The notes under the pieces: model-generated | What the model was told of the DNA's origin: nothing | What the model saw: only the letters and a program-made list of their open reading frames with translations | The model's database searches: none | From: Squalus acanthias | Lineage: Eukaryota | Length of the DNA: 64,000 nucleotides | Assembly (NCBI GenBank): GCA_030390025.1 | Contig: CM059431.1 | Location: forward strand, 139,998,001 to 140,062,000 | Reading direction: 5' to 3' | Translations under genes and position numbers: made by a program | Shown here: piece by piece, positions 16,495 through 19,118 of the stretch | Layout: each line of letters opens with the position of its first letter | Numbering within the stretch: position 1 is the first letter of the stretch

Positions 16495-16760
16495 TCATAC
16501 ACTTGATTTTTCCAACAAATTGTTAAATTTATCATCTGAAATGCTTGGAGTAGGAGCAGTATAAGCATTAACACTTTTAACCACTTGCTTTGCAATTTGT
16601 TTTGACCGAGTCCGTTTACATTTCCTGCATGTCATACATAACAAGGTCAGGACAATTATTAACTGCACCACGACTAATACATGTGAAATCAGTCGAATCC
16701 ATGGATGAATCTGTGTCTTTAGTCCCCAGTCCCAAATGTCATCCACCCATGTGGTCACCT
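16495..16760 (-). pseudogene. env: env 3' remnant of ERV-B (membrane-proximal region, TM, cytoplasmic tail)
   Basis: TTWVDDIWDWGLKTQIHPWIRLISHVLVVVQLIIVLTLLC, near-identical to ERV-A. Confidence 0.88.
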
Positions 16761-16946
16761 TTCACCATCATTAAATTCAATTCACTGTTCCGGTTTTCCA
16801 CTTCTGCCGCTTGGGGTATCCTCTGTTTCTTCTATCTTTCCTGATGTTACCCCGCCTGGGGTCTCCTCTACGTTGCTTCGGATCTTCTCTTTCGGTGTGC
16901 TCAATTAATTTGTTAGTGCTGGTTAGTCATAGGCATGAGTACCCAA

Positions 16947-17345
16947 TTAGCTTATGTATCTTACTACATAGGTTACATATATCAAATACACTATCATTAC
17001 AAGTTGGAGAACTACCAGAGCATGTGAAATAATACAAATATAAGGGTGTGCTGATATATTAAGCCCAATATCCCACCAGTGTGAGTCGTCCTCTGCTGTC
17101 AATTTCAATATCTATTCTCGAGTTGTCTTCCTCCAAAACATAAAAATGCTTTAGGGAGGAGTTCAGTCGCATCATGAGCTCACTGATACCCTTAGACAAC
17201 AGGGGAATGTAGTATCCGAATTGTGCCACATAATTGTGCAGTTCATACTTAAAAATGTGTTGTTTGATAGGACAAGTCCTGTTAGACCCATAAAGCATGG
17301 TAGTTGCGGTAGTAGTGACACAGGAGGCACCACCAAAACCACCTC
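16947..17345 (-). pseudogene. env: Fragment of a second, divergent env of the same fold
   Basis: Manual translation GFGGASCVTTTATTMLYGSNRTCPI, KYELHNYVAQFGYYIPLL, WWDIGLNISAHPYICIISHALVVLQLVMIV aligns with ERV-A GKGEYCVTTNLKTFEYANLTCNI, KYGLWDYINTFGYPIPPL, IWDWGLNIQIHPWIRLISYVLVVVQLVIV. Confidence 0.75.
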
Positions 17346-18944
17346 ATTACTGGATCCGCACAGGTTTTTCCCACGCTCTGTTACCTACAAAACACAATTA
17401 TTAGTCACGGTTAAATTCAGTCTTACAATCATTTCAAGCGACATTACAGTTTAACATCTAATCAACAAATCATGGACTTAAAAGATTCTCCAGATCTCTC
17501 TTTTACTCGTATCCATCTTGTGGATAACTCTTGCTAAACATGATTTCTCCTTAGCCCGGAATTGTCCCAATCCAGATTCCAGGTAACTCTCCACTTCAAC
17601 TTCAATTATCAATCCCTCTAACAGGTACCAGTGTGTTTAACTCTATTCTGATTGTTTCATTAATTAGATAGTTTCTCGATGCAGTATGTGGTAATGCTTT
17701 AAAAGTTGCCTCGCTCTCCTGAGCCACATTAAACATTTCATGTCTTGATGTTGTCAAGTAACTGAGCATGTCTGAGACCCGTTCTTCAGTGCAAATTCAA
17801 CATATATTTGCGGATGGTAATTGCTTCATACGTAACAAATCACATTTGCACACTCATATCGGTATCTCCATATCATGCCACATGTGCCTTTCTCGGGCTT
17901 TCAGGTATCTTATCAAAAGATTGTCTGGAGGTCTTTGTTCATCTTCCTCTGCATGGTACCGATGTAGTGGCCGGTCTATCAAATTCAGTTTTCTTAAAAA
18001 GGTTCATTAGAGGCAGGGACACAAATGTCTCCAAGAGAAAGCTATCAATTTACTATTCTTAGCTACTCTTTCCTGACTTTCACTAGAAAGCTTTTAAAAT
18101 TCCCATTCAGTAGTGTAATTCTCCTGTTTCAATCTTACACCTTCAATCACTTCCCTTTAATTACCATTCATATCTCATTCATGAGCCTGGAGAAACGTTA
18201 CTGTCCAGTAGAATATTTAAGATTGAAAACATAAATCAAATGTTCTCCCTTGGTCCAAGTTATTAATGTTTTTTATTTATCATTATTTTAGAGGATCTTT
18301 TATTTTTCCAAAAGTAACCCAATATATAGTGCCTGAGTCCATTTTGTTATTACAACATTATCGCAAAATCCAAACAGCAGTATTATTGAACTGACAGGTT
18401 TTGTCAATGTTCAATTTCATTTCTATCAATTTATCTTATCAATTCCAATTTCAGAAACAAGTGATTTCCAGGCTAGGTGGTTTACACAGTGTTTTAACAT
18501 TAGAGACAGAAGTGCTGCAATTAGTTTACAAGGTAACTTCCATATAACAAAAGAAAGAAGAGAATCCATTGTGACTCTGCTTCAACCCCAATGGGTTAAT
18601 TGATCAAATCATAATTTTCCTTCTGGGAAATGTTAAATTAAAATTAAGAAACTTAAATTTAATAATGTCCAATATCTTTAAATGTCATACTAAAGTTGTT
18701 GCTCGGTGAACTTAAACAGCTGTCAGTGGACAGGGTTACCTCCTTTGCAGGTCTTTAAGAAGGTGGAACGAAACATTGTCAGGCGCACGCAATTGCGTCA
18801 CTTCACGTAAATTAAAAAAAAACTTCCCGATCCAAAAAACAGTTGTGTTTTTACAGTTTAACTAAGCACAAACATAACAGATAAAACAAAACAAAATAGC
18901 ACATTCGTGCAGAAAACAGTAAATTACGTCATATTTCTTATTGT

Positions 18945-19118
18945 CCTTTCTTCCTGTGATTTTACTGGTACAGACCCTTTGTGTGTTTTATGTGGACCAG
19001 TGGTCATCTCACAGAAAAAAGGAGCTCCCGGCCGGTCGACACAGAACCCCAGCGCCATGGTGGGTGTTGTTTGTTCCCCGAACAGTAACCCTATCATTCC
19101 CATGATAAGCCATCCCAT
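18945..19118 (-). pseudogene. env: env 5' remnant of ERV-B (signal peptide)
   Basis: Matches the ERV-A env N-terminus (GWLIMGMIG...LGFCVDR.GAPFFCEMTTGPHKTH). Confidence 0.85.

Follow-up and report, generated by a model that had tools for sequence, protein, structure and literature searches.

Two proviruses related to each other, ERV-A and ERV-B, lie on the minus strand of the 64-kb window analysed here; they were found by comparing the window with itself. ERV-A extends from 1530 to 8634; its LTRs agree at 811 of 812 aligned bases and its target duplication is GCGT. It contains gag, an accessory frame and env. This env (2688..4773, minus strand) consists of three open pieces, includes an RxKR site and served as the reference; two frame breaks interrupt it, near 3620 and near 2960. 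Pol was not detected in the long frames of ERV-A. With near-identical LTRs yet without a detected pol and with a frame-broken env, ERV-A probably owed its copying to a helper. For an open frame of 235 codons in ERV-A (5538-4831) there was no Pfam match. Among the named relatives of the ERV-A env are sequences of Heptranchias, Pristiophorus, Heterodontus and Chiloscyllium as well as of one frog, in line with a cartilaginous-fish host. In three shark gene models (P0001, P0016 and P0017) pieces of the env family are fused to zinc-finger, cadherin-like and fbxo15 exons, which reflects either exon capture or annotation error.

ERV-B occupies 15406-23779 on the minus strand and has kept its ATAT duplication on both sides. 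The 3′ LTR (15406..16118, minus strand) has TG...CA ends next to this 4-nt target duplication; compared with the 5′ LTR (23056..23779, minus strand) it shows 698 identities and 15 mismatches over 713 aligned bases, plus 11 gap positions. The blocks common to ERV-A and ERV-B are 88–94% identical at the DNA level. Broken pol remnants of the RT and the integrase were located at 20197..21494 (minus strand) by domain and PDB searches. Their best PDB scores were obtained with foamy-virus chains, followed by MLV; for the RT remnant the values were 1.7e-13 and 5.6e-12, respectively. Further lesions of ERV-B are a SINE in the accessory region and deletions in gag and pol. The SINE-like element, at 19518-19770 within the accessory frame, has relatives elsewhere in the window and may resemble shark HE1 SINEs. 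The primer-binding sites of ERV-A (7805-7822) and ERV-B (23037-23054) differ at a few bases, that of ERV-A presumably corresponding to the 3′ end of a tRNA-Leu. Five tRNA genes are located in the window (11092-11167, 23928-24001, 24378-24452, 28838-28912 and 29360-29432), and the integration site of ERV-B is approximately 150 nt from a tRNA-Trp. The only significant Rfam matches were tRNAs, all of them outside ERV-B. A galactosyltransferase frame of 316 codons (51160-52110; PF01762, 1e-53) adjoins a long tandem array at 52215-64000.

At the DNA level, homology between the two proviruses joins 2061-2954 to 15860-16761 and 4596-5157 to 18942-19522, with a break between 16761 and 18942. In this break, 2,180 nt of ERV-B (16762-18941, 36.9% GC) stand for 1,641 nt of ERV-A (2955-4595, 50.0% GC), and a blastn comparison with the rest of the window gave nothing similar to them (best E 0.12). 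On either side the own env of ERV-B is preserved. Its 5′ end (18942..19118, minus strand) comprises the start codon, the leader and about 59 codons with one frame break and is 85% identical to the ERV-A env over 48 amino acids. The 3′ end (16495..16761, minus strand) comprises the membrane-proximal part, the anchor and the tail and is 87% identical over 86 amino acids, within a block of 92.6% DNA identity to ERV-A. Hence, the earlier note was right in stating that the env of ERV-B matches that of ERV-A only at its two ends and that the 2.2 kb in between are AT-rich and unrelated at the DNA level. The limits of the foreign DNA have to be corrected to 16771 on one side and 18941-18953 on the other, since 16770-16758 is A-type env. 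Neither terminal inverted repeats nor flanking direct repeats were found at the ends of the insert; with 1,641 nt of target DNA lost in addition, it does not look like an ordinary DNA transposon or retroposon.

The insert contains the remains of another env. The tblastn search that had been suggested, with the three natural open frames of the ERV-A env as queries, yielded significant matches at 17250-17101 (34% over 50 amino acids, E 2e-6) and 17075-16971 (54% over 35 amino acids, E 9e-10). An env profile was built from 29 sequences, namely the three ERV-A pieces and 26 of the 29 relatives that databases had yielded (P0002, P0021 and P0026 were left out). It recognized three domains in the insert with 11.6, 24.6 and 33.4 bits, compared to 3.7 bits for the best of 200 shuffles. 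In a frameshift-aware alignment the segments 17322-17251, 17250-17098 and 17096-16959 were colinear with a score of 99.0, which none of 30 shuffles reached (maximum 24.2). At 17251, after the Cys block, 32 profile columns are absent that are filled in all 21 relatives spanning both sides. The claim of a colinear, internally deleted env homologue at 17345-16947 thus held, and judged by these alignments 17322-16959, some 365 nt, is a true distant homologue of env.

Three parts can be told apart in this remnant, all on the minus strand. The Cys-rich block (17251..17343, aligned over 17322-17251) shares 11 of 23 residues with ERV-A and, where the 32 codons are missing, continues in frame into the heptad. 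The pre-heptad and C-terminal heptad (17098..17250), detected by tblastn and by the profile, share 17 of 51 residues. After a frame break near 17097 follow the membrane-proximal region and the anchor (16959..17096), with 18 of 34 residues shared and a hydropathy peak of 2.49. Stop codons are depleted in the frame of the remnant (P 0.007). The donor DNA past the anchor (16771..16958, minus strand) has open frames of only 40 and 49 codons, and no homologue of it was found; it is possibly an env tail or a 3′ untranslated region. Just upstream of the remnant, a pyrimidine run at 17385-17400 on the minus strand ends in AG and resembles a splice acceptor.

Compared in register, the insert and ERV-A share 60 of 105 and 67 of 150 nt (45–57%) and 33–53% of the amino acids, in contrast to 98 of 105 nt for ERV-B's own env end. 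The Heptranchias relatives are 72–75% identical to ERV-A over the columns in which the insert is 38% identical. Being so much less similar than the Heptranchias relatives or ERV-B's own env end, the donor remnant belongs to another family than ERV-A and ERV-B, in agreement with the proposal that the recombination partner was a second and distant member of the env lineage. A duplication of ERV-B's own env was considered as a source and rejected, with 59 of 105 nt alike compared to 98 of 105 for ERV-B with ERV-A. In a tree of 101 columns and 16 of 30 rows the insert formed a long branch outside the ERV-A group, with supports of 47–59 nearby; the alignment behind the tree had the Cys block out of register, and the segment identities given above come from a separate in-register comparison. 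Identity to P0010, a relative named Ig-like, was 25%, and a Pfam search gave no V-set match in the insert.

The lineage had been called F-like, and this was supported at the level of structure. The Pfam fusion family PF00523 matched none of the three ERV-A pieces, none of 12 relatives and none of six insert frames. The full-length relative P0010 was modelled with a 25-row alignment (mean pLDDT 63), and all PDB matches listed by Foldseek for this model were paramyxo-/pneumovirus F proteins (best E 2.6e-10). The comparison with F gave Z 11.1 with an rmsd of 5.6 over 290 aligned residues. The env family is therefore predicted to fold like paramyxovirus F, a likeness that is structural only and was seen in the model of the relative P0010. 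The insert maps to positions 558-580 and 613-709 of P0010, corresponding to a beta-rich block, a long pre-membrane helix and the anchor. Searching the PDB with the env sequence gave nothing significant, foamy Env included. An atlas search returned weak leads below 0.9 for the ERV-A env and none for the insert, and no relative was found among viral contigs. Metagenome scans gave zero and one match, and the lone match, L001, was dismissed as a chance 23-mer in DNA of 25% GC.

The DNA upstream of the remnant (17431..18953, minus strand), 1.5 kb of AT-rich donor sequence with 35% GC, gave no match to env, to Pfam or Rfam families or to proteins. Against profile positions 1-343 it scored 16.9, equalled by seven of 40 shuffles, and against single envs it stayed at shuffle level in five of five cases. 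Searches with the insert frames found no protein relatives among 101 and 1,435 candidates. With positions 1-343 unmatched, the cleavage site, the fusion peptide and the N-terminal heptad are absent from the insert, which retains the C-terminal heptad and the anchor. Of the second, divergent env that had been claimed, the 3′ remnant thus stands, whereas the whole gene is not supported; by these comparisons about 365 nt of 2.18 kb are recognizable as env.

The whole 2.18 kb could nonetheless be a single, very divergent env with its leader near 18930 and its tail near 16780, left by an env swap that stopped half-way and later decayed. Its length would suit an env of about 720 codons, an ATG close to the inner side of the 5′ junction precedes what by eye is a hydrophobic stretch, and the upstream DNA travels with the remnant. 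The env frame also has the fewest stops upstream, 28 compared to 38 and 49, but this depletion falls short of significance (P 0.12 and 0.07), and the upstream DNA shows no bias in its triplets (P 0.56). Together with the shuffle-level scores, the lack of a protein relative in the searches and a 32-codon deletion common to a diverged contig, this renders a whole env improbable. Still less probable in our estimate is a bolder version, in which a complete, very divergent F-type env was taken in one step from a family widespread in cartilaginous fish, became nested between the old env stumps, and the chimera spread as a lineage of its own. Were it true, such a capture with spread would be a nucleotide-level record of the movement of F-type env between retrovirus families.

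Parts of 16500-19200 were present in 20 sequencing runs under nine organism codes; none of these held at least half of the words (best 0.45), and no RNA run was listed among the 20. Depth was examined in four of them (X3, X6, X12 and X17), with four organism codes; X17 may be an RNA run, and no weight was put on its high insert depth. The count omits the edge bin 16718-16823, in which the 3′-side step is located, and the SINE bin. In all four runs each of the 20 insert bins (16824-18943) was deeper than each of the eight env-flank bins, the ranges for insert and flank being 7,430–89,185 and 400–4,076 in X3, 165–2,750 and 35–140 in X6, 3,265–68,608 and 5.5–924 in X12, and 46,478–388,272 and 40–4,133 in X17, as summed figures that do not translate into copy numbers. 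Depth steps at both edges in four runs show that the insert belongs to a far more abundant repeat family.

We examined 32 listed contig pieces out of 12,199. A contig of 1,342 nt from X12 aligns with 17101-17531 (76 differences, 429 versus 431 nt) and with 17619-17921, is approximately 82% alike, lacks the same 32 codons and ties the env remnant to the upstream DNA. A deletion at 17251 common to copies that differ to this extent means that the donor env was dead before they diverged. Contigs in three of the four runs skip exactly 16839-17430 (592 nt), that is the whole remnant, pointing to a donor subfamily without it. The donor is hence an already defective, high-copy element and, judging from the env remnant, would be an LTR retroelement. 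An abundant repeat family in runs under nine organism codes carries a further divergent branch of F-type env.

The same data bear on the possibility that the locus is an assembly chimera of repeat and provirus, or else an ordinary transposon insertion. The coverage of words in the listed runs, nowhere reaching one half, would be compatible with an artefact, as would the finding that none of the 32 listed pieces bridges a junction. Against it stand the orientation and place of the insert, which match env, and the presence at the junction of 13 nt that stem from the deleted segment; target DNA lost without terminal inverted or flanking direct repeats speaks against artefact and transposon alike. 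We regard this explanation as very improbable.

The junctions themselves are informative. At the 5′ junction a zone at 18941..18953 (minus strand) fits both parents, with 5 nt exact and about 10 of 12 alike. Eleven X12 contigs track the insert to 18953 and then diverge from the window, while A-type similarity extends to 18942; this microhomology is based on one loose-end row in one of the four runs. Past 18953 the loose end of the donor bears a faint likeness to the beginning of the ERV-B RT remnant (21455-21480), over 30 AT-rich letters that may agree by chance. The 3′ junction has a compound structure, in which 13 nt of A-type env (16758..16770, minus strand), equivalent to ERV-A 3483-3471, form an island that meets A-type position 2954 via a common AAGG, with 516 nt skipped. 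This island is the longest exact match, and the only 13-mer match, between the insert and the missing ERV-A segment, with a chance expectation of about 3e-5. In ERV-B the order is accordingly its own env start, 2.18 kb of donor DNA, nine A-type bases, the 516-nt skip and its own env end. An X17 contig starting exactly at 16761 was set aside, as a single-base variant explains its start equally well. The structure of the 3′ junction, with the island followed by the skip at AAGG, points to template switching by reverse transcriptase, a process known to generate deletions, with or without insertions, and rarely also non-homologous recombinants (PMC3187697).

We think that ERV-B is probably a defective recombinant of two families that arose during reverse transcription. 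RNA of the A/B family and RNA of a second, distinct retroelement, very abundant and by then defective, would have been packaged together; the 3′ part of the latter contained the decayed end of an F-type env. Starting from the 3′ end, reverse transcriptase would have skipped 516 nt at AAGG and copied nine further A-type bases before jumping to the donor RNA, where it would have copied 2.18 kb and then returned to the A-type env at a short match containing GAAGA. The 516-nt skip may predate the exchange. The LTRs and the target duplication are intact, and intact LTRs give no date for an internal replacement. The exchange was out of register, such that env was destroyed and not swapped: one anchor now follows the other, and the ectodomain is gone.

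A replacement in the chromosome could have joined the same two parents after ERV-B had integrated, if a copy of the donor, or cDNA made from it, patched a break in env by microhomology-mediated repair; this needs neither co-packaging nor co-activity. End-joining repair, too, yields short microhomologies and templated islands, the donor is abundant, and ERV-B has suffered other lesions, namely the accessory-region SINE and the deleted gag and pol. A DNA-level route was also named for the koala retrovirus recombinants (PMC6112702). On the other hand, donor and acceptor have the same orientation, with one env 3′ end beside the other, as co-packaged genomes predict, and the three parts of the 3′ junction follow one another in the order expected from jumps of the polymerase. 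We therefore consider repair unlikely, though not negligible. The earlier note had concluded that at least two such families were co-active in this host, which does not follow: the lesion in the donor env is common to the 82%-alike X12 contig, and template switching or repair with a defective donor, transcribed or merely present as DNA, suffices without two intact active viruses.

Recombination during reverse transcription, our preferred explanation, has a close parallel in recKoRV1, a product of KoRV and PhER, in which KoRV ends surround degraded, transcribed, high-copy PhER DNA, with microhomologies and target duplications as described in PMC6112702. As in that account, the LTRs and ends of ERV-B come from one ERV and the interior from a dissimilar retroelement with remains of an env region; the donor is degraded and abundant (here by depth, not copy number), the target duplication is kept and the outcome is loss of function. 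Microhomology at the breakpoints may be a further likeness, given AAGG at the internal skip and the 5 nt exact at the 5′ junction from the single loose-end row. Unlike recKoRV1, which by the same account loses the region from the gag leader to env, only env is replaced in ERV-B; moreover, both parents belong to the F-type env lineage, the host is a cartilaginous fish and one copy was seen here. In macaques, the HML2 env was replaced by MER11A, an LTR of HML8, with 81 copies known (PMC10536682). ERV-B resembles the case described there in that DNA of another ERV family replaced the env interior and destroyed env; it differs in that the donor piece is internal instead of an LTR, includes an env remnant and was seen in one copy. 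Env recombination was described as frequent in fish and amphibian ERVs, based on incongruence between Env and Pol (bioRxiv 10.1101/2021.11.23.469661). The swaps treated in that preprint concern gamma-type Env and were inferred from trees, whereas ERV-B is a single case at junction level, of F-type and non-functional. No such chimera in cartilaginous fish was found in the literature surveyed, mostly freely accessible articles. ERV-B thus extends the env-destroying recombination of an ERV with a resident degraded element, known from koala and macaque, to cartilaginous fish and to F-type env, and the jumps of the polymerase can still be read from its junctions.

F-like retroviral Env proteins have been described in lokiretroviruses (PMC7947760), in foamy viruses (PMC11468914) and in Ty3/gypsy elements (PMC13524379). 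Known origins of F-type env are unchanged by the ERV-B chimera, which makes no protein. The env family studied here shares the F-like character of lokiretrovirus Env, reported from ERVs of anamniotes with a signal peptide, an RxKR site, a coiled coil and an anchor, and differs from it in lacking a sequence match to PF00523; the main text of PMC7947760 mentions neither sharks nor cartilaginous fish. With foamy virus Env, as presented in PMC11468914, it has in common a retroviral Env with the core of paramyxo-/pneumovirus F, and foamy Env matches the P0010 model at Z 8.3, but without a sequence match to foamy Env in the PDB. Among BFVD structures, walleye epsilonretrovirus Env proteins also match the F-like model (WEHV1, E 1.9e-9; WDSV, E 9.8e-7), with low TM-scores.
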